A stretch of DNA of 64,000 bases from an uncultured delta proteobacterium. Lineage in GTDB: Bacteria; Desulfobacterota; Desulfomonilia; Desulfomonilales; Desulfomonilaceae. Shown here piece after piece: positions 16,300 through 31,244 of the stretch. Location of the stretch: NCBI GenBank assembly GCA_963700305.1, contig CAVOXB010000027.1:320358-384357 (forward strand), given 5' to 3'. Each line of letters opens with the position of its first letter. Position 1 is the first letter of the stretch. The translations under genes were made by a program, and so were the position numbers. Under the pieces are notes generated by a model. It worked only from the letters and a program-made list of their open reading frames with translations. It did not search any database and was not told where the DNA came from.

Positions 16300-16583
16300 T
16301 ACTGGAAACTGAAATCACGGAAACAACTCTCAGAGTAGGTAACCAATTAGGGATTCACGCAAGAGTGGCTACCATGATGGTTCAGGCTATGCAAAATTAT
16401 ACCTGCCAGGTTACGTTGGTGAAAGATGGTGTGGAAGTTGATGCCCGAAGTGTGCTAGGATTATTGCTTTTAGCCGCCACACCAGGAAGTGAACTTGTCG
16501 TACCAGCACACGGCCCGGATTCCAGGCAAGCAATTCAGGAGATAAGCCGACTTATACAAGATGAAGAGACCGAAGAAGGTTGA
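16296..16583 (+). CDS. ptsH: Phosphocarrier protein HPr
   Basis: 95 aa. MILETEITETTLRVGNQLGIHARVATMMVQ contains the active-site His15 context (GIHARVA). Confidence 0.85.
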   Translation: MILETEITETTLRVGNQLGIHARVATMMVQAMQNYTCQVTLVKDGVEVDARSVLGLLLLAATPGSELVVPAHGPDSRQAIQEISRLIQDEETEEG

Positions 16584-16635
16584 CAAGAAAAAATCCCGGA
16601 CGCCCAAAGTAAGCGAAAACGATACCAACAGGTTG

Positions 16636-18394
16636 ATGAGGGGGATTGGAGTATCCGGAGGTGTGGGAATAGGCCAAGCTGTCGTAATCGAACGCCTTAC
16701 CACGGAAATATGCCCCAAGCGCATCCTCAATCCCGAGGAAGTGCCTCTCGAGATTTCACGATTCGAAGCTGCCGTAGAAACCGCCGCAGAACGAATAAAA
16801 GCCATTAAGGGGCACATAGACCCGCATCATCCTCTGGGTGAGCACGCGTACATTCTTGATACTCACATTTTGCTCCTTAAGGACAAGATGTTTTATGAAG
16901 GCACAAAGAAGGCCATAGACGCGGAACGACAGAACGCGGAATGGGCTGTATCCGAAATAGTCATGAAAATCACGTCCGCGTTCGATACAATTGAAGACGA
17001 ATACCTGAAGGAGCGAGCGCGAGACATTTATTTTATTGGTGAGCGCGTCCTGCGAATACTGATGGGTATTTCTACGGAAAGTAAGATCCATCAGCTTCCC
17101 CCTAATTCCGTCATAATATCTCATGATCTATCACCTGCTGATACGGCGCAGATAAAAAGAGAGTGCGTGCTTGGCTTTGCCATAGACATGGGAGGACGCA
17201 CGTCTCACACCGCCATCATGGCGCGGTCCTTGAAAATTCCCGCCATAACCGGTTTGGAGAGCATCAGCGGTCAAGTCCAGACAGGTGACACGATAGTCAT
17301 AGACGGCAGTACCGGTATTGTGATCATCAATCCCGACCCTGAAATGATTTTCAGGTACAGGGAAAGGCAGGAGCTATACAAAAAATATCAGCAGTCTTTG
17401 ATGGCCTACGGCAGATTGCCTGCGGTCACTCGCGACGGTTCCAGAACAGTTAGGATCTCCGCTAATATCGAATTGGTGGATGAGCTTGAATTCGCAAAAA
17501 GCCACGGAGCGGAAGGCATAGGGCTTTTTCGGTACTGAATACCTGTTCTTGGGCAGGCCTGATCTGCCTTCGGAAGAGGAACAGTTTGAAGTCTATCGCC
17601 AGGTGTTGAAGGAGAATGCTCCCAATCCTGTGACAATTCGAACTCTGGACATCGGCGGAGACAAGATCGCCATAAGCGTGGGCGTCTCACATGAGACCAA
17701 CCCGGCAATGGGATTGAGGGCGATCCGACTCTGCCTGAACCGCCCGGATATTTTCAAGACTCAACTCAGGGCAATTCTCAGGGCCGCCGTTGATGGTGAG
17801 TGCCGGCTCTTGATTCCAATGGTCTCCTGTCTTACGGAACTCGTGACCACGAAACAGCTGCTGGAAGAGGCAAAAAAAGACCTGGATTCCGATGGTCTAC
17901 CGTATGCCCAGCACCTCAAGTTGGGGATTCTGGTTGAGGTACCTTCCGCTGTCGCCATTGCGGACATTCTGGCGAAGAATGTAGATTTCTTTAGTATCGG
18001 AACAAACGATCTGATTCAGTACGCTCTGGCCATTGACAGAGTCAACGAGCACGTAAATTACCTTTATGACACCCTTCATCCTGCCGTTCTAAGGCTGATT
18101 CGCCAAATAGTGAGTGCAGCGCAGGCTGGAGGCATTCCTGTGTCCATGTGCGGTGAAATGGCCGGCGATCCGGTCAACATTCCTATTCTCTTGGGTCTCG
18201 GGATTGACGAGCTTTCCATGAACGCCCTAGCCATCCCTATGGTAAAGAAGCTGATTCGAGCCATCAGCATGGACGAATGCAGAGAACTCACATGGCAGGC
18301 CTTTCAATTTTACGACGCCCGGGAAATCCACGGGTTCCTTGAGTCCTGGATCACAGAACGTTTCCCCAAAGACTATTTCATAGACCAGTCCTAG
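16636..18394 (+). pseudogene. ptsI: Phosphoenolpyruvate-protein phosphotransferase (PTS enzyme I) split by a +1 frameshift at about 17533
   Basis: ORF 16561..17538 ends ...GAEGIGLFRY*. ORF 17549..18394 continues in the +1 frame as (TEYLF)LGRPDLPSEEEQ.... Canonical EI reads GIGLFRTEFLF. Deleting T17533 fuses the two frames. The catalytic His (GGRTSHTAIMARSL) and the PEP-binding C-terminal domain are both present. Confidence 0.85.
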
Positions 18395-18984: not shown

Positions 18985-19341
18985 GGGGGCGACATGGTTT
19001 CGACGGGGATAGTTGAGGTCAAGGCTGCATGTCGAGCACTCCGGTGACTCGTTAAACCGCCGGTAAATAAATTTACTCGCCAATAATCACGAGTACGCAC
19101 TAGCCGCGTAAGGCTAGCGTTTCTCTGCTTTTCTCCTGCGGGGGTGGAAGAAGCGACGGTCAGCAGGATAGCCGAGTTTCCGTGCCTGTTGGGAACAACG
19201 CGAAAAAAAAAGCGGGCTGGTCCGACGAGAAACCTTGTCTGAGGGGGTCTCAGCGGACGAGAAACAAAACTCGGAATAAGCATGTAGACGCCTTCGGCTG
19301 AAGATTTCCGGACGCGGGTTCGATTCCCGCCGCCTCCACCA
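18985..19341 (+). ncRNA. ssrA: tmRNA (SsrA). Tag reading frame 19079-19111 encodes ANNHEYALAA*.
   Basis: 5' GGGGGCGACAUGGUUUCGACGGGG. 3' GGACGCGGGUUCGAUUCCCGCCGCCUCCACCA. The acceptor stem has the G3:U70 identity pair. The resume codon is GCC and the tag ends ...YALAA-UAA. Confidence 0.9.
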
Positions 19342-19433
19342 GTTAACTTGTTGATTTTATTGAAATCGAACCCTCAGAAAGTTATCAGTAAATTAGTAAC
19401 CATTTCCGTGTTATATAATATCAGTGAGGCGAA

Positions 19434-19514
19434 ATGGTGAAACTCAAGGTCATCGTTCACGAAGCATCAGAAGGCCATTTGCCGGACGAGAATGATTTCA
19501 TCAACTGCCAGTAG
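19434..19514 (+). pseudogene. HicB-like (UPF0150) antitoxin N-terminal remnant (26 codons then a stop)
   Basis: MVKLKVIVHEASEGHLPDEN resembles the HicB N-terminus (MKYKVIVHEAEEGGYWAEVP...). It is truncated. Weak call. Confidence 0.25.
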
Positions 19515-19609
19515 GGTTGGATCCACACGCTCAACGGCAATCCGTCAATTAGAGTTCCGGGCGGAACGATTGAACTGATCCTTTGCGCCTTGCTGATAAC
19601 TCGGGAGCC

Positions 19610-22600
19610 TCATTCCTCCGCGCCTCGCGACTCCAACAGCCTGACGATTTCCCTGTTGTCCTCTTCCTCAGCCAACTGCAGAGCTGTATTGCCGTTAGCT
19701 GCCTCGGCATGTACGTCGGCTCCGCTGTCCAGGAGAAATCTCACTGTTTCGAGGTCTCCTTTCGCGGCCACAGCCATAAGCGTCGTCTTGCCGTCCTTGT
19801 CTCTTGCGTTCACGCTGGCGCCTCTGTTGACAAGGTGCTTCACGAGTTCGAGATTACCGGACAGGGCAGCGTACATGAGGACTGTGGAGCCGTCCTGGTC
19901 CTTGGCACTTACATCGGCGCCTTTTTCAAGCAAGGTTTTGACTTCTTCCAGGGAACCCTTCTTGGCTGCTTTCAATAGCTTATCATTGACTTCAGAGTAG
20001 GGCGTGCTTCGAATTGGAGGTCTGAAAATCACAATACCATAGGATGACGGGCCTAGTTCCCTGATTCGAATTTCATACGCTTTTTTTATGCACTGCGCAT
20101 CCTGACATTCATTGCGTTCATTCTCCAGCCATTGATTTTGGCTTTGAATCATTTCCTCTTTTTTCCTAGTTCGGTCGAGCACTTGCTGGTACGCCATAAC
20201 TAAGGAATTATCCAGCGTCAATAATTCATCACTGGCGCAGATTATCTTCTCTACTTCTGATCTCGCTTTTGAGCAATCAAAGCTTGCAGCGTGGATGTTT
20301 CCGCCAAATGCCCGCTTGCTATCTTGCGTTTGTGGCGCTGGTTGGGGTGGTTCAATTTTGAATTTGTTGAAATCTAAAACGCGCAAAGGCCCCGGGTTTC
20401 CTTGTGGCAATGGAACGCCCTTAGGGATAAAGAAGGCTGCTGGGTCGCTATCTAAACCTGCCGGGAATGTGAACGGCTTGAGGACCACGTACGTATTGTG
20501 AATTCCTGGACGCCTGGGCATTGCACGGGCTTGGCCGGCGATCCGTGGATCTGTTTTTGGTGCGTTGGCGATTTCTGCATTCACCCAGGCATCCGCATCG
20601 GCATCAGTAGCCTTGCGCAACAACCCTTTTCGAACCGCGTCCTTTAGACCTGCGCGGCCCGCCCGTGGCGCGGTCTTATCATAGAACGATTCTGGGGGAT
20701 TGGATTCAGAAGTAATGAGTTTTTCTCCTGCCGGTACAGGGTCGCCCACGACAGCCTTGCCATTCTTGGTCAGATAGACGAGATCCACGGGGTGCCCAAA
20801 GAGACGGCGTGACATAGGGTTGAACTCGAGGAGTTCCTTTTCTGCTTCGCCGACAACGGCATAACCACAAGGGCCCTTGTTGTCATAACTGGAATTCAGC
20901 ACAGGAACGTTAGCATCCAGACCGGCAACGGCCTGGCGATGATACCCGCTCACAAACACGGCTGCAATACGGGTGGCTGCAGTCCATTTGATATTCCAGA
21001 TAGTCGGTCCGTAAGCTCCGAGCATGATCACTACGGGCTTGGTGGAATAGTTCACCGTCACATCCATTTGAGTTGCTTGATTTCCGCTTTGGTCTATCTG
21101 GAAATGTAGTTTTCGTCGCGAATAGCCTCCTGCAGCAAATATTGCGTAATTCTCGGGAAGCGCCAGGCCTGGAAACTCGCAACCTTTTCTGGTTTGGTCC
21201 TCAGATAGCCCTTCCTGATCTTCCCCGAGTTCCTCAAGCGCCTTCTTGTATGCCTTGAGATGGTTGAAATTGTAAACAAACGAGTGCCCAGGATCCCCTT
21301 TTGGCTGTGGTACTCCCTCCGGGACGAAAAGGTTTGCCAAGTGGCCACCATAGAGCCCTGCTGGGTAAGAGAACGGCTTCAGTACAACATACGCATCCCA
21401 TGTATGGGGACGCGGGGGCTTGGGGCGGCCTTTTCCGGCAATCAATGGCACATCTCGATCAGGTCCGTTGGCTATCAGCGCATCAACCCAAGCGTCAGCA
21501 TCCGCTTCCGTCGCTTTACGCAAGAACCCTTTCCGAACAGCGTCCTCCAAACCAGCCGGGCCAGCAATTGGTGCTGTCGTGTCATGGAAGGATTCCGGGG
21601 AATTGGATTCTGAAGTAATGAGTTTTTCTCTCGCCGGTACGGGGTCGCCTATGACAACTTCGCCATTCTTGGCTGGATAAACCAGATCCACGGGGCGTCC
21701 GAATAGATTACGTGATATCTGGTTTATCTTTTCAGAATTTTCTCGTTGTCCGACATAGAAATATCCACAGGGACAAGGTCCTCGGTCGGCAGAACTCGAA
21801 TTCAGCACGGGGACAGTGGCATCGAGACCGGCAATAGCCTGGTGGTGATACCCGCTTACGAGCACACCAATGATGCGGGTGGTCGCAGTCCATTTGATGT
21901 TCCAGATCGTCGGTTCGTACGCTCCGAGCATCAATACGATAGGTTTGGAGGAATAGTTCACCGTCACATCCATTTGAGTCGCTTGATGCCCGCTCTGGTC
22001 TATTTGGAAATCCAGCGTTCGTCCCGAATAGCCTCCTGCAGCGAATATTGCATAACTCTCGGGAAGCGCCAGACCTGCAAACTCACAGGTTTTCTTGCGA
22101 TGATCCACAGATTGTCGTTTCCGCTCCTCTTCCTTTTTGTAATCAGGGGCGGAAGCAGCGTCAGAAGGCAGGGTGGATTGAGTGGTCAGATGACATTTGC
22201 TGATCTTCTCGATTGCACGGGGAATAGCTTGGCTCGCCTCACTCCATCTCGGAGGTTCACCCGGATGCAGCGCCCAAGACACCTCTTTCACGAGTTTAAC
22301 AGTCTCAAGCTGATGCTTAAGGGCACTAAGAGCCTTCTCCTGGCTCTTAGCAGACATGCGGCAGACGACGGAATCGCCGTAATCATATTCGCCGCCCAAG
22401 ATCTCAACCACAGTGCGTAGTGTGGTTAGTCTCTTCAGCCCTATCAGGAGATCGTCAAGATTTTGCTCCAGGAGAGTGATGCGTGGATCTGCGGCAGAAT
22501 CCTTGTTTTTGGCAGAATCCTTGTCTCTGACAGATTCATCATCTGCGTCAGAATCACCTTCTGGGCCAGAATCAATATCTCTATAGAAACTGGAAAGAGA

Positions 22601-23263
22601 GTGTGCGGCACTGGCTCTCACTTTGGGATCCGGGTCATGCGCCATTGCTTTGATCAACAATGGCACAGAATGATCACCACTCATGAAAGAAGCCGCCTTT
22701 GCCCTCACCACTGGAGAAGGATCTCTCAATCCAATTTCGTTGTATTTGTCCCTTTCCGGATGACCTTGCTGATTGATTACTTCCAGCGCCTTTTGTCGTT
22801 CGGTTGCCGACTTGCTATTGAGGAAACTCGCCGTCTGGTCCTCAGCAAGCGCTGGATCGACCCTATAGTAATGACAATCCATCCCGAGGTTACCGGCGAA
22901 CGCTTCGTTACGAGTCCTGAAGCCCGAGACGCGTAATCCGTCCTGCACGGAATTGGGATCATCCTGCTTCGAGCCCTCCAGCCGGACAAAGGGCAGATAG
23001 CAGTCTGATGAGGAGATTTCAAGAAGGACATGTTGCTCGTCAGCTTCGACAACTGTGTAGGGGACATTTTTACTCTTGCACTCATCCCAGGTTATGTTCT
23101 CTTTCCGCAGGACTATGATGGAAGTCATGCAGGCGCGGGATTCTCCCTGATATGTTCCGATAAAAGACGGCGGCACTTCTGCGCCGAAAGCCACTGAGGA
23201 GACGGCAAGCGCCAGAAGAATGGCCAAAAGCAGCACCCTATCAGAAGTAGAACTCATGACCAC
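19610..23263 (-). CDS. Large secreted multi-domain protein (1217 aa): signal peptide, HEAT/PBS-lyase repeats, two tandem ~330-aa repeats of an unrecognised domain, an LprI/DUF1311-like domain, and C-terminal ankyrin repeats
   Basis: Signal peptide MVMSSTSDRVLLLAILLALAVSSVAFGA. HEAT-like segment DPSPVVRAKAASF...HDPDPKVRASAAHSL. Duplicated module CEFAGLALPE(S/N)YAIFAAGGYS...TQMDVTVNYS. DUF1311-like segment FDCSKARSEVEKIICASDELLTLDNSLVMAYQQVL...WLENERNEC. Ankyrin repeats DGSTVLMYAALSGNLELVKHLVNRGASVNARDKDGKTTLMAVAAKGDLETVRFLLDSGADV. Confidence 0.7.
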   Translation of the reverse strand: MVMSSTSDRVLLLAILLALAVSSVAFGAEVPPSFIGTYQGESRACMTSIIVLRKENITWDECKSKNVPYTVVEADEQHVLLEISSSDCYLPFVRLEGSKQDDPNSVQDGLRVSGFRTRNEAFAGNLGMDCHYYRVDPALAEDQTASFLNSKSATERQKALEVINQQGHPERDKYNEIGLRDPSPVVRAKAASFMSGDHSVPLLIKAMAHDPDPKVRASAAHSLSSFYRDIDSGPEGDSDADDESVRDKDSAKNKDSAADPRITLLEQNLDDLLIGLKRLTTLRTVVEILGGEYDYGDSVVCRMSAKSQEKALSALKHQLETVKLVKEVSWALHPGEPPRWSEASQAIPRAIEKISKCHLTTQSTLPSDAASAPDYKKEEERKRQSVDHRKKTCEFAGLALPESYAIFAAGGYSGRTLDFQIDQSGHQATQMDVTVNYSSKPIVLMLGAYEPTIWNIKWTATTRIIGVLVSGYHHQAIAGLDATVPVLNSSSADRGPCPCGYFYVGQRENSEKINQISRNLFGRPVDLVYPAKNGEVVIGDPVPAREKLITSESNSPESFHDTTAPIAGPAGLEDAVRKGFLRKATEADADAWVDALIANGPDRDVPLIAGKGRPKPPRPHTWDAYVVLKPFSYPAGLYGGHLANLFVPEGVPQPKGDPGHSFVYNFNHLKAYKKALEELGEDQEGLSEDQTRKGCEFPGLALPENYAIFAAGGYSRRKLHFQIDQSGNQATQMDVTVNYSTKPVVIMLGAYGPTIWNIKWTAATRIAAVFVSGYHRQAVAGLDANVPVLNSSYDNKGPCGYAVVGEAEKELLEFNPMSRRLFGHPVDLVYLTKNGKAVVGDPVPAGEKLITSESNPPESFYDKTAPRAGRAGLKDAVRKGLLRKATDADADAWVNAEIANAPKTDPRIAGQARAMPRRPGIHNTYVVLKPFTFPAGLDSDPAAFFIPKGVPLPQGNPGPLRVLDFNKFKIEPPQPAPQTQDSKRAFGGNIHAASFDCSKARSEVEKIICASDELLTLDNSLVMAYQQVLDRTRKKEEMIQSQNQWLENERNECQDAQCIKKAYEIRIRELGPSSYGIVIFRPPIRSTPYSEVNDKLLKAAKKGSLEEVKTLLEKGADVSAKDQDGSTVLMYAALSGNLELVKHLVNRGASVNARDKDGKTTLMAVAAKGDLETVRFLLDSGADVHAEAANGNTALQLAEEEDNREIVRLLESRGAEE

Positions 23264-23523
23264 ACCTCCTTGTTAACCCGCCAATGGATTGGATTAATCT
23301 GCATAATGTGCGGACTCTCGATCTTCTTCGGCATACCACGCCATTCTGGTGATTGCCAGAGAAATACTAAGGTCTCTGTGTCGGGATCAAGCCCGCCGTG
23401 CATTGCCTTGTCGCCCTTGGGGACAACATGCCATCGGTTCGTGAATCTGTGATGGCATCGATAAGGAAAATAGGAGGAAATTTTGCGCAAATTCAGTGCA
23501 ACGATCAGATTGTCCTGATCCAT
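23254..23523 (-). CDS. Hypothetical small protein immediately upstream of, and overlapping, the giant gene
   Basis: The ORF frame runs on through the IS200 left-end hairpin, so its true 5' end is probably the internal Met (MDQDN...) or has been disrupted by the IS. It overlaps the 1217-aa gene start by 10 nt. Confidence 0.3.
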   Translation of the reverse strand: MDQDNLIVALNLRKISSYFPYRCHHRFTNRWHVVPKGDKAMHGGLDPDTETLVFLWQSPEWRGMPKKIESPHIMQINPIHWRVNKEVWS

Positions 23524-23569
23524 CAGGAGGTCACCACAGCAAGAGCCATTGTAGCGTAACCAGAAAATG

Positions 23570-24190
23570 GTAAGCCCCCGGCTTTGCCGGGGAGACTCCC
23601 CAAGGTTTGACCGTGTGAGGCAGTAAGAGGCAACCTCCCAGAACACACCAAATTTCAATTCTGGGAGGTTTTCATGAAAGACTATAAGAGCCTAAATCAC
23701 ACGAAGTGGGATTGCAAGTATCATGTGGTTTTCATTCCCAAACGCCGGAGAAAGCAGATTTACGGTTCCCTTCGGAAATACCTGGGAGAGATATTTCATG
23801 AGTTGGCTCGCCAAAAGGAGTCCCAGATAGTGGAAGGACATCTGTGCTCGGATCATGTCCATGTGTGCATGAGTATTCCACCCAAGTTTGCTGTGTCCAA
23901 CGTGATCGGGTACATCAAAGGCAAGAGTGCGATCTCCATTGCAAGGAATTTCACAGCGAGAAAGCGGAACTTTGCAGGAGAGAGCTTTTGGGCTCGTGGC
24001 TACTATGTCTCAACAGTGGGTTTGGACGAAGAGTCTGTAAGGAAGTACATTTCGCGAGCAGGACGCCAAAGACGCAAGGCTCGATCAACTGAACTGGCTT
24101 TCTGACGACGACCCGTCCCCTTCAGGGGACTCATGAGCTGACCCCCTTGGGGGGCTAACAGGAATATGCCCCCGGCTTTGCCGGGGGTAA
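23570..24190 (+). mobile_element. IS200/IS605-family insertion sequence (tnpA only) with subterminal hairpins
   Basis: Left-end hairpin CCCCGGCTTTGCCGGGG at 23575-23592. Right-end hairpins GTCCCCTTCAGGGGAC, CCCCCTTGGGGGG and CCCCCGGCTTTGCCGGGGG at 24100-24188. Confidence 0.7.
23674..24105 (+). CDS. tnpA: IS200/IS605 family transposase TnpA (HUH Y1)
   Basis: 143 aa. MKDYKSLNHTKWDCKYHVVFIPKRRRK...HLCSDHVHVCMSIPPK contains the HuH motif (HVHV) and the catalytic Tyr region (GYYVSTVG). Confidence 0.85.
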   Translation: MKDYKSLNHTKWDCKYHVVFIPKRRRKQIYGSLRKYLGEIFHELARQKESQIVEGHLCSDHVHVCMSIPPKFAVSNVIGYIKGKSAISIARNFTARKRNFAGESFWARGYYVSTVGLDEESVRKYISRAGRQRRKARSTELAF

Positions 24191-24231
24191 TTTAACCTAA
24201 CTGATATGTTGCGATTTATCGGTGCCTCAAT

Positions 24232-24260
24232 CGGGTTCGATTCCCGCCGCCTCCAACAGT
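24232..24260 (+). repeat. attR-like direct repeat of the tmRNA 3' end (CGGGTTCGATTCCCGCCGCCTCCAaCAGT)
   Basis: 24 of 24 identical to tmRNA 19315-19338, with continued identity after one mismatch. No D-arm or anticodon arm upstream, so it is not a tRNA gene. Confidence 0.6.
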
Positions 24261-24804: not shown

Positions 24805-27288
24805 CTACCGGGCGACAGCCTCAGCGGCTTGTTTGTGTTCCGTTTCGGCGTGCTGCGCCGGTTCGAGTTTGAAGGTCAGCTTGTTGATCTTGCCGGTGAA
24901 CTTGAATGGGACGTCGTAGCGATACTCCAGCATCGCGACCCCGGTCCGCGTGTCCTGGCCTATATCGAAGGTTTCGTCCTCCGGGAACGTGATCGGGGTG
25001 GTGTGTTCCAGGGAATTCCGGGCCACTTCCTGACCGTCCACATACAGCACGCCCGTACCTCCCTTGCCCAGGCCCGGGCCGGCAGACTTGAAGTCGAAGA
25101 CGATGGTGTGCTTCCCCGATTTCAACTCAGGCCCCTCCCATGTCGTGCGCTTGAGATCGAGCAGGTTGTAGAGAAACACCACCTTACCGCGCCCGAAGCC
25201 GAACTCGCCCTTGCTCAGGAACAGGCCGTAGCCGCCGAAGCGTCCGCCATCGGTGACGATCATGCCTTCCGCTCCACCTTCAGGAATTTCTACCTCGGCA
25301 GTAATTGTGTACGACTTGTTCAGGATGTTCGGTGCGCCACTGTTAGGGACGCCGGTCAGTTCTCCCGAATAGGTGAAGACCGTTCGTCCCCCCGTGAGGT
25401 TCGGCCGAGGCGTGTTCCAGCGCGCGAGCGACGAGTTGTCGAGCGGCAGCACGTCGTATTTTTGCGCCTCCAGATAGAAGATGGCCTGCATCTGCTTGAG
25501 CTTCTCCGGCATCTTGGCGGCCAGGTCGTTGAACTGGGTGGGGTCCTCCTGGACATTGTAGAGCTCCCACTTGTACCCGGTTATCACGTCCGGCGGCGTG
25601 GCGGTGCTGAGCTCCCAGGGAAGGTTCGCCGGTGTCGTGCACGCAACCCAGCCATCGTGGTAGATGGCTCTGTTGCCGAGCATCTCGAAGTATTGCGTGG
25701 AGTGCCGGGTCGGGGCATTGGCGTTTGCCTTGTCCCAGGTGTAAATCGTGCTCACTCCTTCGATGGGGCGTTGTTTGATGCCGTTGATCGTCTCGGGTGA
25801 CGGGATGCCTGTCGCTTCGAGGATTGTCGGCACGACGTCGATGACGTGATGGAACTGGTGGCGGATGCCGCCCACGTCCTTTATGTGGCCAGGCCAGGAC
25901 ACCGCCATGCCCTGGGCCGTCCCTCCGAAATGGGACGCCACCTGCTTCACCCACTTGAACGGCGTGCTCATCGCCCACGCCCAACCTGCCGCAAAGTGTG
26001 GGAACGTCCGTTCCGAGCCCCAGAACTCGTACCAGAGAAACTGGTCCTTGACCGGAACGGCAACGCCATTGAACGTGGTGAACTCGTTCGGCGTACCGTT
26101 GAGCATACCCTCAGCGCTCGCGCCGTTGTCACCGCTGATGTAGATGATCAAGGTGTTGTCGAGTTGCCCGAGGTCTTCGACGGCCTGGATGACCCTGCCG
26201 ATCTCATGGTCGGTGTACGCGAGGTACGCCCCGTAGACGTCGGCCTGCTTGATGAAGAGCTTCTTCTCCTCCAAGCTGAGTGAATCCCACTCCGGCAGTT
26301 CCTTCGGCCAAGGCGTCAGCTTCGCGTTCTCGGGCATGATGCCCAGCCGCTTCTGATTAGCGAAGATGGTCTCGCGGACTTTGTTCCAGCCCTCATCGAA
26401 GAGATGCATGTCGCTGACCTTCTTGATCCATTCAGAAGTAGGATGATGCGGCGCGTGCGTGCCGCCCGGCACGTAATAGACGAAGAACGGTTTATCGGGC
26501 GCGATCTCTTTGAGCTGCTTCATGTACTGGATCGCCTCGTCGGCCATGGCCGTGGTCAGGTTCCAGCCGGGGCTGCCCTGAAAGGGGTAGATAGACGTCG
26601 TGTTGCGAAACAGGTTCGGTTGCCACTGGCTGGCGTCGCCGCCAACGAAGCCGTAGAAATACTCGAAGCCCAATCCGTTCGGCCACTGGTCGAACGGCCC
26701 GGCCTGGGTTGCCTGATAAAACGGTGTGTTGTGGTTCTTGCCGAACCACGAAGTTGCATAACCATTGTCCCTAAGGATGGCGCCTATTGTGCCGTTCTCC
26801 TTCCGGATGATCGAGTCGTACCCCGGGAACCCCGTCGCGATTTCGCCCACGACGCCGAAGCCGGCCACGTGATGGTTGCGTCCCGTGATAATCGCAGCCC
26901 GCGTCGGTGAGCACAGCGACGTGGAGTGGAAGTTCGTGTAACGCAGTCCATTGTTCGCGATGCGATCCAGGGCCGGGGTCGGGACAACGCCGCCGAAGGT
27001 GCCCGGCGCGCCGTAGCCGACATCGTCCGTCATGATGAGTAACACATTGGGCGCGCCCTTCGGGGGAACGACGCGTGGCGCCCACCACGCCTTCGACTCA
27101 GAGGCTTTCTCCTTGATCACCCCCCCAAATTTCGGGTCTGGTGGAGGAAGCTGCTTTCCGTCAATGGTTGTGGTCGCATCCGGTGAGCCCGGTACGCCGG
27201 TGATCTGCTGAGCGTTGCCGGGACTGGCAACAGCCGTGACGAGGGCAATCAAGGCTACGTACATCAATAGTTGATTTCGAGGACGCAT
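24805..27288 (-). CDS. Arylsulfatase (Cys-type sulfatase family S1), secreted, with a roughly 300-aa C-terminal extension
   Basis: Signal peptide (MRPRNQLLMYVALIALVTAVASPGNAQQ). Sulfatase signature LIMTDDVGYGAPGTFGG...TNFHSTSLCSPTRAAIITGR (C-x-P-x-R). GC is visibly higher than in flanking DNA. Confidence 0.85.
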   Translation of the reverse strand: MRPRNQLLMYVALIALVTAVASPGNAQQITGVPGSPDATTTIDGKQLPPPDPKFGGVIKEKASESKAWWAPRVVPPKGAPNVLLIMTDDVGYGAPGTFGGVVPTPALDRIANNGLRYTNFHSTSLCSPTRAAIITGRNHHVAGFGVVGEIATGFPGYDSIIRKENGTIGAILRDNGYATSWFGKNHNTPFYQATQAGPFDQWPNGLGFEYFYGFVGGDASQWQPNLFRNTTSIYPFQGSPGWNLTTAMADEAIQYMKQLKEIAPDKPFFVYYVPGGTHAPHHPTSEWIKKVSDMHLFDEGWNKVRETIFANQKRLGIMPENAKLTPWPKELPEWDSLSLEEKKLFIKQADVYGAYLAYTDHEIGRVIQAVEDLGQLDNTLIIYISGDNGASAEGMLNGTPNEFTTFNGVAVPVKDQFLWYEFWGSERTFPHFAAGWAWAMSTPFKWVKQVASHFGGTAQGMAVSWPGHIKDVGGIRHQFHHVIDVVPTILEATGIPSPETINGIKQRPIEGVSTIYTWDKANANAPTRHSTQYFEMLGNRAIYHDGWVACTTPANLPWELSTATPPDVITGYKWELYNVQEDPTQFNDLAAKMPEKLKQMQAIFYLEAQKYDVLPLDNSSLARWNTPRPNLTGGRTVFTYSGELTGVPNSGAPNILNKSYTITAEVEIPEGGAEGMIVTDGGRFGGYGLFLSKGEFGFGRGKVVFLYNLLDLKRTTWEGPELKSGKHTIVFDFKSAGPGLGKGGTGVLYVDGQEVARNSLEHTTPITFPEDETFDIGQDTRTGVAMLEYRYDVPFKFTGKINKLTFKLEPAQHAETEHKQAAEAVAR

Positions 27289-27952
27289 CGCTGTCTCCTC
27301 CATCAAGAGATTCTTAACCTTTAATATCATTTATTTTTCGACCTTAACCCGGCATTCAAAGAAGGCCTCGCAATTCTACCTTCGCAGCGGGCGATGAAAA
27401 TTCACGGATTTGTTACCTGCGACCCGCTCAGGCCTTTTGTAACACCCCACAGTGTCCTAGATCATCAAATCCGTCATCAACATTATCAATAAATTCTCCT
27501 ATTCAGCATAACTGTCCCCACGCGTCTCCGTCAATCAGAATCCTTCGCGTTTCCGCATATCATTGATGATTGCCTAGAGCGGCGCCAGAAAAAGGGCCTG
27601 ATTCAAGAATGAACAAATCGCTAGTCAAGTCCCCTCCCGGCCAATCATCGACAGAAACAGCCCACTTGAAAATCAGCTCGTTTAGCGGAAAGGACGTCGT
27701 GCATTTCATCGGATGCAATCTACCAGAAGACAGAGGTAATAGCATGATATGACAGCATTTAATGACTTGTGGATCGGGTTAGATTCCGCGTCTTCCCCCT
27801 GTGATTGCTAGGCATTGATGCTTTGTACCGAAAAACAAAGGCGTGCAAACCAATGCGCACCTTGGTAGTGTACTCGTCATTTGTGATCTCGAATTGTTTC
27901 CAAGGCGCGGGACAAGCAACGGTAACCCACCAAATAAAATTGCAGGCAAACC

Positions 27953-28910: not shown

Positions 28911-29252
28911 TCATCTCTCTTCCGCAAGAACTGACTTTGTTTCTTCTTCAAGAATTGGGATCTTATCTTGGATTGCCGTCCATGCAGTCTCCAGGTTCAC
29001 TCCGAAATATTCGTGGATAAGTATGTTACGAAACCCAATGATTTTTGCCCACTCGACATCGAGGTATAGAGACTTGACGTCCTGCGGTAGACGATTCGCT
29101 GCCTCCCCTATGACTTCGAAGTTCCGGATGACTGCGTCTTGGGTCTTGAGGTCAGCCTGGAATTCTTCAAATGACATTCATTCAGTAAACCTCCGAATCT
29201 TCCGGCAAGATTCGAGGATGTCATCGAGATAGAGCCTAAAGTCCCGGGGCAT
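28911..29252 (-). pseudogene. hepT: HepT-like toxin (HEPN/DUF86) copy 1, interrupted by an in-frame TGA at 29178-29180
   Basis: The minus strand reads MPRDFRLYLDDILESCRKIRRFTE-[TGA]-MSFEEFQADLKTQDAVIRNFEVIGEA...RNILIHEYFGV (the Rx4HxY HEPN motif). The paralog at 30209-30556 has YTAGFSYEQF at the equivalent position. The start overlaps the mntA stop by 17 nt. Confidence 0.7.
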
Positions 29253-29535
29253 AAATGGTCTCCTCCAGGATGGCGGTGCGTATTCTCGGCTTTATGGTGT
29301 CTGAGATGACGAGATCAACTGGTCGTTCAAACAGTCCTTCCAAAAAAAATTTCAGATCGAAATAGTTGTCAAATGTGGCGCTCTCGAATTCCACGAGGAA
29401 ATCCATGTCGCTGGCCTCTGTTTGCTGATCGTGGGCGTACGATCCGAAAAATCCGAGGCGACGCACTCCGAAGCCACGAATCATTTCCAGATTCTCCTCA
29501 AGCCTGCGTAAGATTTCGTCGCGGTTCACTTCCAT
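29236..29535 (-). CDS. mntA: MntA-like nucleotidyltransferase antitoxin copy 1 (intact)
   Basis: 99 aa. RRLGFFGSYAHDQQTEASDMDFLVEF shows the GSxxxxxx...DxD minimal nucleotidyltransferase motif. Confidence 0.75.
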   Translation of the reverse strand: MEVNRDEILRRLEENLEMIRGFGVRRLGFFGSYAHDQQTEASDMDFLVEFESATFDNYFDLKFFLEGLFERPVDLVISDTIKPRIRTAILEETIYAPGL

Positions 29536-30212: not shown

Positions 30213-30556
30213 TCCTTTGGTTCGAGAATGCGTTGCACGCTATCTCTAACCCGCGGCAGATCGTTTTGAATTATCTTCCAGATCACATCGAGCTTGATCC
30301 CGAAATACTGGTGCACAATAATGTCTCTTAATCCGGCCATATCTCGCCACGGAACCTCAGGATAGTGGGAACGTATTTCTTCTGGGATGTTTTTCGTTGC
30401 TTCTCCAATAATTTGAAGGTTCCACACTACTGCTTCAACAGTCTTTTGATCGGCAGCGAATTGCTCATACGAGAATCCCGCTGTGTATCCTAAGACTTTT
30501 CCGGAGGCTTCCAGAATATCGTCCAGGAATACTCTATAATCCCTCGGCATAAACAA
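30209..30556 (-). CDS. hepT: HepT-like toxin (HEPN/DUF86) copy 2 (intact, 115 aa)
   Basis: MFMPRDYRVFLDDILEASGKVLGYTAGFSYEQF...RDIIVHQYFGI (Rx4HxY). Confidence 0.8.
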   Translation of the reverse strand: MFMPRDYRVFLDDILEASGKVLGYTAGFSYEQFAADQKTVEAVVWNLQIIGEATKNIPEEIRSHYPEVPWRDMAGLRDIIVHQYFGIKLDVIWKIIQNDLPRVRDSVQRILEPKE

Positions 30557-30827
30557 CCTCGTTAAGGATGATTGGTCTGAGCCTCGGCTTCACTGCGTCC
30601 GCAAAAACAAGATCCACGGAACAGCCAAACAGCTGCTCAAGGAACTCTTTCAGGTTCAAGTAGTTTTGGAGCGTAGCATCATAGAACTCCACCAGGAAGT
30701 CTATGTCGCTGGACTGTTTCTCTTCGCCACGCGGCATACGAACCAAAGACACCTAGGCGATGCACTCCGAAACCTCGGATGGCCTCACGATTCTCCTCTA
30801 ACGTTTTCAGGATGATGTCGGAAGTCA
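30534..30827 (-). pseudogene. mntA: MntA-like nucleotidyltransferase antitoxin copy 2, with a frameshift (1-nt insertion near 30730)
   Basis: Upstream frame: MTSDIILKTLEENREAIRGFGVHRLGVFGSYAAWRR. ORF frame: (R)MPRGEEKQSSDIDFLVEF.... The expected contiguous sequence is ...GVFGSYARGEEKQSSDIDFLVEF. Confidence 0.7.
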
Positions 30828-31244
30828 TAGCGATGATCTCCGAATCACATCATGGTTGTCCGGATCATGTTGCCAATGGGATGGATGTTCCTCAAAGTAT
30901 TTTCGACTAGCGTGCAAGCCTTTTCCTTCCGGACGACGTGTTCGTAATAGTTGCGTTGCCAGGGTTTCGCGCTCTATTGATCCCCATAATTCGTATTCAG
31001 GTGTCGAATAAATTCATTGGTCATCACCGTTTTGAAGCATGCACGATCTTTGGTAGGGGGTCACCCGCGTGTGCGCCCGAATCTGAGCAGACGCGTGGGT
31101 CTGCCTCTACCCCTGGGATTATGCCATGAAAATGGTTGGTTGGGCATAATCACATAAGCATCACTCTCATAGTGGAAATTTGTTCTTCTAGCGTCTTACA
31201 CGAATGAAATTTTCATACTTGAAATACAAAGACACGCATTGTTC

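Follow-up and report, generated by a model that had tools for sequence, protein, structure and literature searches.

A predicted exported mosaic protein in a decayed tmRNA islet carries two copies of a module from a large uncurated family

Several described systems resemble parts of the gene studied here, a single large gene on the minus strand of a 64,000-nucleotide (nt) stretch of DNA (the window) from an uncultured delta proteobacterium of the family Desulfomonilaceae (contig CAVOXB010000027.1). Its product is predicted to be exported and contains two tandem copies of a module that belongs to a large uncurated protein family. Proteins of the DUF1311/LprI type, such as LprI of M. tuberculosis, ScwA of Salmonella and YecT of E. 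coli, are periplasmic, disulfide-bonded and linked to cell-wall homeostasis, lysozyme inhibition by the domain itself being unproven (PMC7933661). They have also been cited as candidate type VI secretion system (T6SS) immunity proteins (PMC12135965). A short helical element of the same type, with four Cys, is present in the window protein. This element lies C-terminal to the modules, whereas it is N-terminal in most relatives, and the protein has no MliC domain.

In Pseudomonas, the defence protein Arc3B (DUF2339) prevents lysophospholipid build-up by a T6SS phospholipase (bioRxiv 10.1101/2021.08.22.457286). In at least six relatives, the module is fused C-terminally to the full DUF2339 membrane domain. 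The window protein itself contains no DUF2339, and the only other gene of its islet encodes an IS200/IS605 transposase, not a membrane protein. The module also lacks any match to Pfam PF13163, the family of Arc3A, the known partner of Arc3B. The link between Arc3B and the window protein is thus one of guilt by fusion only. Eukaryotic-type ankyrin repeats in a bacterial protein are likewise known from the Dot/Icm effectors of Legionella and Coxiella (AnkY, AnkH, AnkG and others). Here, the window protein scores far below the equivalog cut-offs, and the rest of it is unrelated to those effectors.

Two further comparisons concern fold and genomic setting. Vertebrate betaglycan (TGFBR3) and endoglin contain an orphan domain whose fold the endoglin paper presented as new; the same paper reports endoglin only in amniotes. 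This fold, defined as beta-helix-like with 12 strands and one helix, aligns with the N-terminal half of the module only. The window protein differs in being bacterial and in having no ZP module and no demonstrated circular permutation, and the orphan domain is not known to have an equivalent of the conserved polar signature of the module. Genomic islands linked to transfer-messenger RNA (tmRNA) genes are flanked on both sides by a direct repeat of the ssrA 3' end, as is the insert in the window. Unlike such islands, the insert spans only 4.9 kb and lacks an integrase; its content is a single cargo gene and an IS200 transposase, and we regard the insert as a remnant rather than an active element.

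A duplicated module from a large uncurated family

The features of the gene are listed below; residue numbers refer to the 1217-aa (amino acid) version with the GTG start.

19610..23263, minus strand: whole open reading frame (ORF), 1217 aa from GTG, stop codon included (ORF listing)
23265..23271, minus strand: putative ribosome-binding site AAGGAGG, 7 nt upstream of the ATG at 23257 (read from the sequence)
23183..23263, minus strand: predicted Sec-type signal peptide, aa 1-27, predicted cleavage between AFG and AE (sequence features; kept in orthologues)
22859..23182, minus strand: small N-terminal beta domain with four Cys, aa 28-135 (AlphaFold2 model, about 8 strands)
22184..22855, minus strand: HEAT/PBS-lyase-type alpha-solenoid, aa 137-360
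21251..22087, minus strand: module copy 1, aa 393-671
20357..21181, minus strand: module copy 2, aa 695-969
20048..20281, minus strand: DUF1311/LprI-like four-Cys helical element, aa 995-1072
19613..19999, minus strand: four ankyrin repeats, aa 1089-1217 (Pfam, four stretches)

The module is absent from the curated collections that we searched. A single copy (283 aa) has no match in Pfam-A (2025) even at E ≤ 10, a search of NCBIfam (2026) with the whole protein returned nothing in the module region, and the PADLOC library contains no match to it. Sequences in the PDB were matched neither by the single sequence nor by a 48-member profile (0 matches at E ≤ 10). These data bear out the suggestion in the first-pass annotation that the duplicated unit is an undescribed domain, yet the domain is far from rare. 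A word-indexed search retrieved 691 proteins, and the best 120 of the 691 are 55-70% identical over the whole module. A profile search of 1.84 billion representatives (50%-identity clusters) returned 2477 proteins at E ≤ 1e-3, with 529 at E ≤ 1e-30. Most members are ~325 aa long, consist of a signal peptide plus the module, are predicted to be exported, and bear the name 'hypothetical protein'.

The best relatives come from Hydrogenophaga, Iodobacter, Halopseudomonas, Marinobacter, Pseudomonas cichorii, Ottowia, Andreprevotia, Desulfobulbus, Rhodocyclaceae and Zoogloeaceae. When GTDB species genomes were scanned, 140 loci were confirmed, mainly in Beta- and Gammaproteobacteria, with other carriers in Desulfobulbus, Syntrophaceae, Nitrospira, Bacteriovorax and Archangium. 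Carriers are mostly free-living or environmental (Beta- and Gammaproteobacteria, Nitrospira, Myxococcota), and the module is 55-65% identical across classes.

Conservation within the module centers on a set of polar residues. Invariant columns among close relatives include D, S, G, E, Y-H-Q, H-S and two Cys. In profile numbering the signature reads D72-S74-H76-E100-Y122-H123-Q125-H307-S308. The string DSHEYHQHS is exact in 163 of 242 single-copy domains, and most of the others are one position off. In multi-copy proteins, by contrast, one or all copies are commonly degenerate. The window protein fits this pattern. Copy 1 is canonical (D422, S424, H426, E450, Y472, H473, Q475, H660, S661), and copy 2 reads DSNGYHQPL, having lost four of the nine residues (H to N728, E to G752, H to P959, S to L960). 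Copy 2 also shows FY to AV and YG to D- at conserved positions. The signature residues, and the pairing of a canonical with a degenerate copy in one protein, offer direct targets for mutagenesis.

AlphaFold2, run on a 48-sequence alignment, gave a confident model of copy 1 (predicted local distance difference test score, pLDDT, 91.2; predicted template-modelling score, pTM, 0.80). In this model, the N-terminal ∼100 residues would form stacked short strands with a recurring G/S-Y motif (AAGGYSG, LGAYEP, VSGYHHQ, NSS...), and the C-terminal half is mixed alpha/beta. A conserved Cys pair may hold the module together. The best structural match of the beta-helix-like N-terminal half is the betaglycan/endoglin orphan domain, with a TM (template-modelling) score of about 0.28 and 7-16% identity. 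No sequence homology between the orphan domain and the module was found (0 matches at E ≤ 10 in the profile search of PDB sequences, none in Pfam). The resemblance, if true, would be of evolutionary interest.

That the module is duplicated in the window protein is clear at both the protein and the DNA level. By BLASTP, aa ∼385-671 match aa ∼687-969 with 67% identity (E 6e-134), and a blastn self-comparison gave 73.5% identity over 840 nt (E 4e-141), the best ungapped blocks reaching 76-82%. The direct-repeat period is 900-906 nt, so that the duplicated unit spans about 300 codons. The tandem ∼900-bp duplication noticed on first inspection is therefore real and far beyond chance. It is less similar, however, than the ∼85% DNA identity that was first reported, and it is not recent. 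Between the window copies, synonymous divergence (dS) is 0.92 and the ratio of nonsynonymous to synonymous divergence (dN/dS) is 0.22, and orthologues with no more than 68-71% identity already have both copies. These orthologues are a 798-aa fragment from a JGI metagenome (P0125, 71% identical) and a full-length 1253-aa protein (L005:4822-8583) in a metagenome-assembled genome (MAG) of an uncultured delta proteobacterium, which is 68% identical end to end and has the same domain order plus one extra ankyrin repeat.

In a neighbor-joining (NJ) tree, copy 1 of all three proteins groups together and so does copy 2; the two clades are sisters, and the stand-alone proteins branch outside them. Given this topology, and since diverged orthologues share both copies, the duplication is old and took place a single time in this lineage, ahead of the split between these organisms. 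The same topology led us to reject a fusion of distant paralogues as the origin of the two copies. The Glu-to-Gly change is common to copy 2 of every orthologue, which dates the loss to an early stage: the four signature residues were apparently lost soon after the duplication, in all orthologues. Judging from the dN/dS of 0.22, the degenerate copy 2 has nonetheless been maintained, and it seems to remain under purifying selection.

Tandem copies recur elsewhere in the family, with 19 of 265 retrieved proteins carrying 2-5 modules. In each multi-copy protein tested (P0122, P0123, P0131, P0154), the copies within one protein are mutual closest relatives, and hence tandem duplication of the module has been recurrent and independent across lineages. 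The extreme of this tendency to form arrays is P0121 (1705 aa), with five tandem modules, every one of them with a degenerate signature.

What is new here is a large uncurated family that has a confidently predicted fold, with the betaglycan/endoglin orphan domain as its closest match, and a polar signature, undergoes recurrent tandem duplication with degenerating extra copies, and is linked by fusion to Arc3B. Public databases already list its members under the name of hypothetical proteins, and exported mosaics rich in repeats are nothing unusual. The window protein is another such mosaic, but it points to a large nameless family that lacks a curated model. We consider the domain worth describing, as naming it would annotate thousands of 'hypothetical proteins'.

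Partner domains and gene structure

From N- to C-terminus, the window protein consists of a signal peptide, a small beta domain, a HEAT-type alpha-solenoid, two ∼285-aa modules, a Cys-rich helical element of the DUF1311/LprI kind and four ankyrin repeats, essentially as first annotated. Among 75 long family members, the Pfam partners are LprI/DUF1311 (10), DUF2339 (6), ankyrin (3), EF-hand (3) and HEAT (2), with single cases of DUF4153, SoxY/SoxZ, DUF4124 and dockerin. When the window segment was used as a BLAST query, the DUF1311-like element was found in 30 family members, normally directly after the signal peptide. P0133 combines DUF1311, the N-terminal beta domain, HEAT repeats and one module, and in P0167 and P0193 ankyrin repeats precede the module. 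Judged by domain content, the window protein reads as a reshuffled set of the usual partners of the family. Every identifiable partner domain is extracytoplasmic or membrane-embedded. The DUF2339 fusions (P0150, P0170, P0204, P0226, P0143, P0129) are ∼1200 aa long, with one module after a full polytopic membrane domain of the Arc3B type; P0159 has a DUF4153 membrane domain instead of DUF2339.

At the N-terminus, MSSTSDRVLLLAILLALAVSSVAFG followed by AEV is arranged like a Sec signal peptide, with charged, hydrophobic and small-residue stretches and no lipobox. The beta domain that follows is lineage-restricted and has no match in the PDB or Pfam. The N-terminal 335 aa as a whole are rare: a search of 5.8 billion clusters yielded only 7 homologues, each from a short contig. 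Membership of the solenoid in the HEAT/PBS-lyase HEAT-like families (PF13646, PF02985) is supported by an alpha-solenoid fold and by a HEAT_2 score of 38.3 bits against a cut-off of 27.7, with HEAT_2/HEAT matches at aa 179-228. Both the signal peptide and the HEAT repeats had been proposed at the outset, and both hold. A predicted disordered, acidic loop (aa ∼231-256), which differs in length among orthologues, breaks the solenoid. An 18-nt tandem repeat (GGCAGAATCCTTGTTTTT x2) at 22493-22528 lies inside this loop and corresponds to 'KDSAKNKDSA'.

The DUF1311 assignment of the element after the modules is secure as to homology and short of the threshold as to score. Pfam LprI (PF07007) matches aa 997-1069 with 20.8 bits (E 5e-4), just below the cut-off of 22, and the L005 orthologue has no LprI/DUF1311 match at E ≤ 1e-3. 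On the other hand, the segment is 41% identical (E 1e-20) to the DUF1311 N-terminus of a relative annotated as 'YecT, DUF1311 family' (P0006), it has the four Cys (FDC, IIC, NEC, AQC), and relatives with the same element pass PF07007 (e.g. P0142 at 43.5 bits). The LprI/DUF1311-like domain of the first-pass annotation thus stands on homology and its four Cys, although not on the Pfam score. The accompanying label 'lysozyme inhibitor' does not carry over, given the lack of experimental support for that activity in the domain itself.

The C-terminal repeats belong to PF00023/PF12796, with 81.6 bits for Ank (cut-off 21.1) and 82 bits for Ank_2 (cut-off 27.3) over aa 1090-1216, and they match DARPin and ankyrin structures in the PDB with E values down to 2e-75. 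They number four, capping repeats included, instead of the three first counted. NCBIfam matches to the protein are sub-threshold only and all fall within these repeats. Matches to MzaA, PDC-M72A and Legionella Ank models were dismissed, as the ankyrin repeats alone account for them.

The gene is a single uninterrupted frame over 3.65 kb, and the 1217-aa ORF originally reported is confirmed as intact. Its start is probably not the GTG. The upstream string AAGGAGG-TGTGGTC-ATG places AAGGAGG only 1 nt from the GTG and 7 nt from the ATG at 23257, and this spacing makes the ATG (product 1215 aa) the likelier start. Scans for promoters and terminators returned sites no more numerous than in shuffled sequence.

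Proposed role and competing readings

Domain fusions are the sole functional lead for the module family. Our preferred reading, which we consider plausible though short of probable, is that the gene, lying in a decayed tmRNA islet, encodes a Sec-exported, periplasm-facing mosaic whose module has a putative pocket and which serves in envelope maintenance or protection. Envelope maintenance or protection is favored because the recurrent fusion partners are DUF1311 and Arc3B-type DUF2339. In this scheme, the nine-residue signature would form a metal- or substrate-binding, possibly catalytic, pocket, and the module would be a self-sufficient periplasmic ligand-binding or catalytic domain. Since the signature, taken as the pocket, is intact in copy 1, that copy would be the working unit, and copy 2 would serve in structure or binding without catalysis. 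Tethering of the activity to envelope partners could fall to the HEAT solenoid, the DUF1311-like element and the ankyrin repeats, the solenoid repeats acting as protein-binding arms.

Several points weigh against this proposal. We infer that the nine residues cluster, and the function of the module is likewise deduced indirectly for all family members. Export is predicted from the visible features of the signal peptide. The DUF2339 fusion occurs in a minority of members only and is absent from the window protein. Stand-alone members have no conserved neighbors, whether four homologues were compared by hand or all ORFs of 84 loci were clustered, and for this reason no pathway can be assigned to the module. 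LysR, GGDEF-EAL, SDR, ABC and MFS genes do recur next to it, and we rejected them as chance neighbors from generic superfamilies. In Ottowia testudinis (CP071796), a stand-alone module gene (L004, 5001-5999) sits between dnaX and ybaB-recR in an otherwise conserved string, and other stand-alone copies (L001, L003) lie beside IS110 or rve transposase genes; this insertion and these transposase-adjacent copies suggest that the stand-alone gene is mobile cargo.

A more ambitious claim would make the module the working head of an undescribed, widespread periplasmic family, with a putative metal or substrate (catalytic) site, that acts in envelope defence with Arc3B-type membrane proteins and is the first prokaryotic family with the beta-helix-like fold of the betaglycan/endoglin orphan domain, which is otherwise recorded from vertebrates alone. 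We think this quite unlikely.

The main rival to the preferred reading holds that the module is a non-catalytic binding or neutralizing domain, and that the protein is a periplasmic array of binders (HEAT, ankyrin, DUF1311 and module) directed against incoming bacterial toxins, of the immunity or Arc type. It draws on the top fold matches, which are protein-ligand co-receptor domains, on the candidate immunity role of DUF1311 proteins, on the Arc3B-type fusions, and on the position of the gene in a hotspot of variable content, which in Desulfomonile tiedjei is occupied by toxin-antitoxin and defence genes. Immunity proteins, however, usually evolve fast and are encoded next to their cognate toxin. 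The module combines high identity across classes with nearly invariant His, Glu, Asp and Ser residues, it has no conserved neighbor, and the islet contains no toxin gene. A classical immunity protein would not be expected to be so conserved across classes or to lack a toxin next to it, and we place a binder of this kind on the unlikely side.

The idea raised in the first-pass annotation, that this is a secreted effector or adhesin, is highly improbable. On this reading the protein would act on a eukaryotic host or on surfaces, its ankyrin and HEAT repeats mimicking host proteins. The ankyrin repeats do resemble those of Legionella Dot/Icm Ank effectors, the gene is in a horizontally acquired islet, and one distant family member has a dockerin. 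Yet the NCBIfam Ank effector models (NF0430xx) score 11.6-52.5 bits against cut-offs of 450-1400, on the ankyrin repeats only. A Sec signal peptide, such as the protein bears, does not befit a Dot/Icm-type substrate. The host lineage is of the free-living Desulfomonile type. The orthologue was recovered from an environmental MAG, where it occupies a different locus. Genes for secretion systems or host interaction are missing from the flanks of the ORF, and the protein has no adhesin-type Pfam repeats. It is probably an ordinary cell-envelope protein and not a host effector. We give next to no credence to the remaining alternative, an assembly artefact of the ORF or repeat, or a pseudogene decaying in a degraded island. 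An islet that has lost its integrase and holds an IS200 element, close to a phosphotransferase system (PTS) enzyme I gene that is frameshifted in this assembly, might have suggested as much. The frame, however, is intact and preceded by a good ribosome-binding site, and the low dN/dS speaks against decay. The copies are 27% divergent at the DNA level, and hence neither collapsed nor mis-joined, and two independent assemblies have the same two-copy architecture. Together, these observations exclude the mis-assembly that had been named as a possible refutation.

The islet at the tmRNA gene and the surrounding window

The gene lies in an insert at the 3' end of the tmRNA gene, with the following features.

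18985..19341, plus strand: tmRNA gene (ssrA), directly after smpB, its 3' end forming the left attachment repeat (ARAGORN)
19315..19343, plus strand: left 29-nt direct repeat (attL-like)
23674..24105, plus strand: IS200/IS605-family TnpA, the only other gene of the islet
24232..24260, plus strand: right 29-nt direct repeat (attR-like), 28 of 29 positions identical

The 29-nt repeat of the tmRNA 3' end (28/29 identical, with 0 matches expected in shuffles) brackets the 4.9-kb insert. No integrase was found beside the attachment site; the gene-like ORFs in 19344-24260 are the large gene and TnpA only. SmpB is 87-90% identical to that of D. tiedjei, and the order PTS-EIID, HPr, EI, smpB, ssrA is kept both by D. 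tiedjei and by a related metagenome contig. Synteny with D. tiedjei breaks off precisely at the 3' end of the tmRNA. Together with the repeat, this break upholds the early description of the context as an integrated island. After ssrA, each of the three related genomes has a content of its own: in D. tiedjei it is a set of NYN, SIR2, nucleotidyltransferase and PIN genes, and in the related contig it is a resolvase/ERCC4/D5-primase/integrase element (L085, L086). The L005 orthologue of the large gene is found at a locus unrelated to that in the window. Because post-ssrA content is variable and the orthologue is located elsewhere, we assign the gene to the flexible genome, in a decayed islet at an integration hotspot.

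The transposase gene is flanked by 22-nt GC-rich hairpin repeats (TAAGCCCCCGGCTTTGCCGGGG) at 23571-23592 and 24165-24186, and the 90%-identity cluster of its product includes D. tiedjei copies. Upstream of the islet, the PTS enzyme I gene (16561-18394, plus strand) is broken into two ORFs (325 and 281 aa), the frame changing near 17522-17549. At the same syntenic position, D. tiedjei and the related contig have a single 612-aa enzyme I, and the split marks either a pseudogene with a frameshift or a mistake in the assembly.

Just beyond the right repeat, 24805-27330 (minus strand) contains an unannotated 841-aa ORF that reads like a candidate arylsulfatase. The patch that holds it has a G+C content of 55-59%, compared to about 50% elsewhere, and may be a further acquired segment. 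Farther on, 29230-29535 and 30522-30828 show up to 78% aa identity (tblastx) to the post-ssrA nucleotidyltransferase (NTP_transf_2) gene of D. tiedjei, and probably represent genes of the toxin-antitoxin type within the same stretch of variable content.

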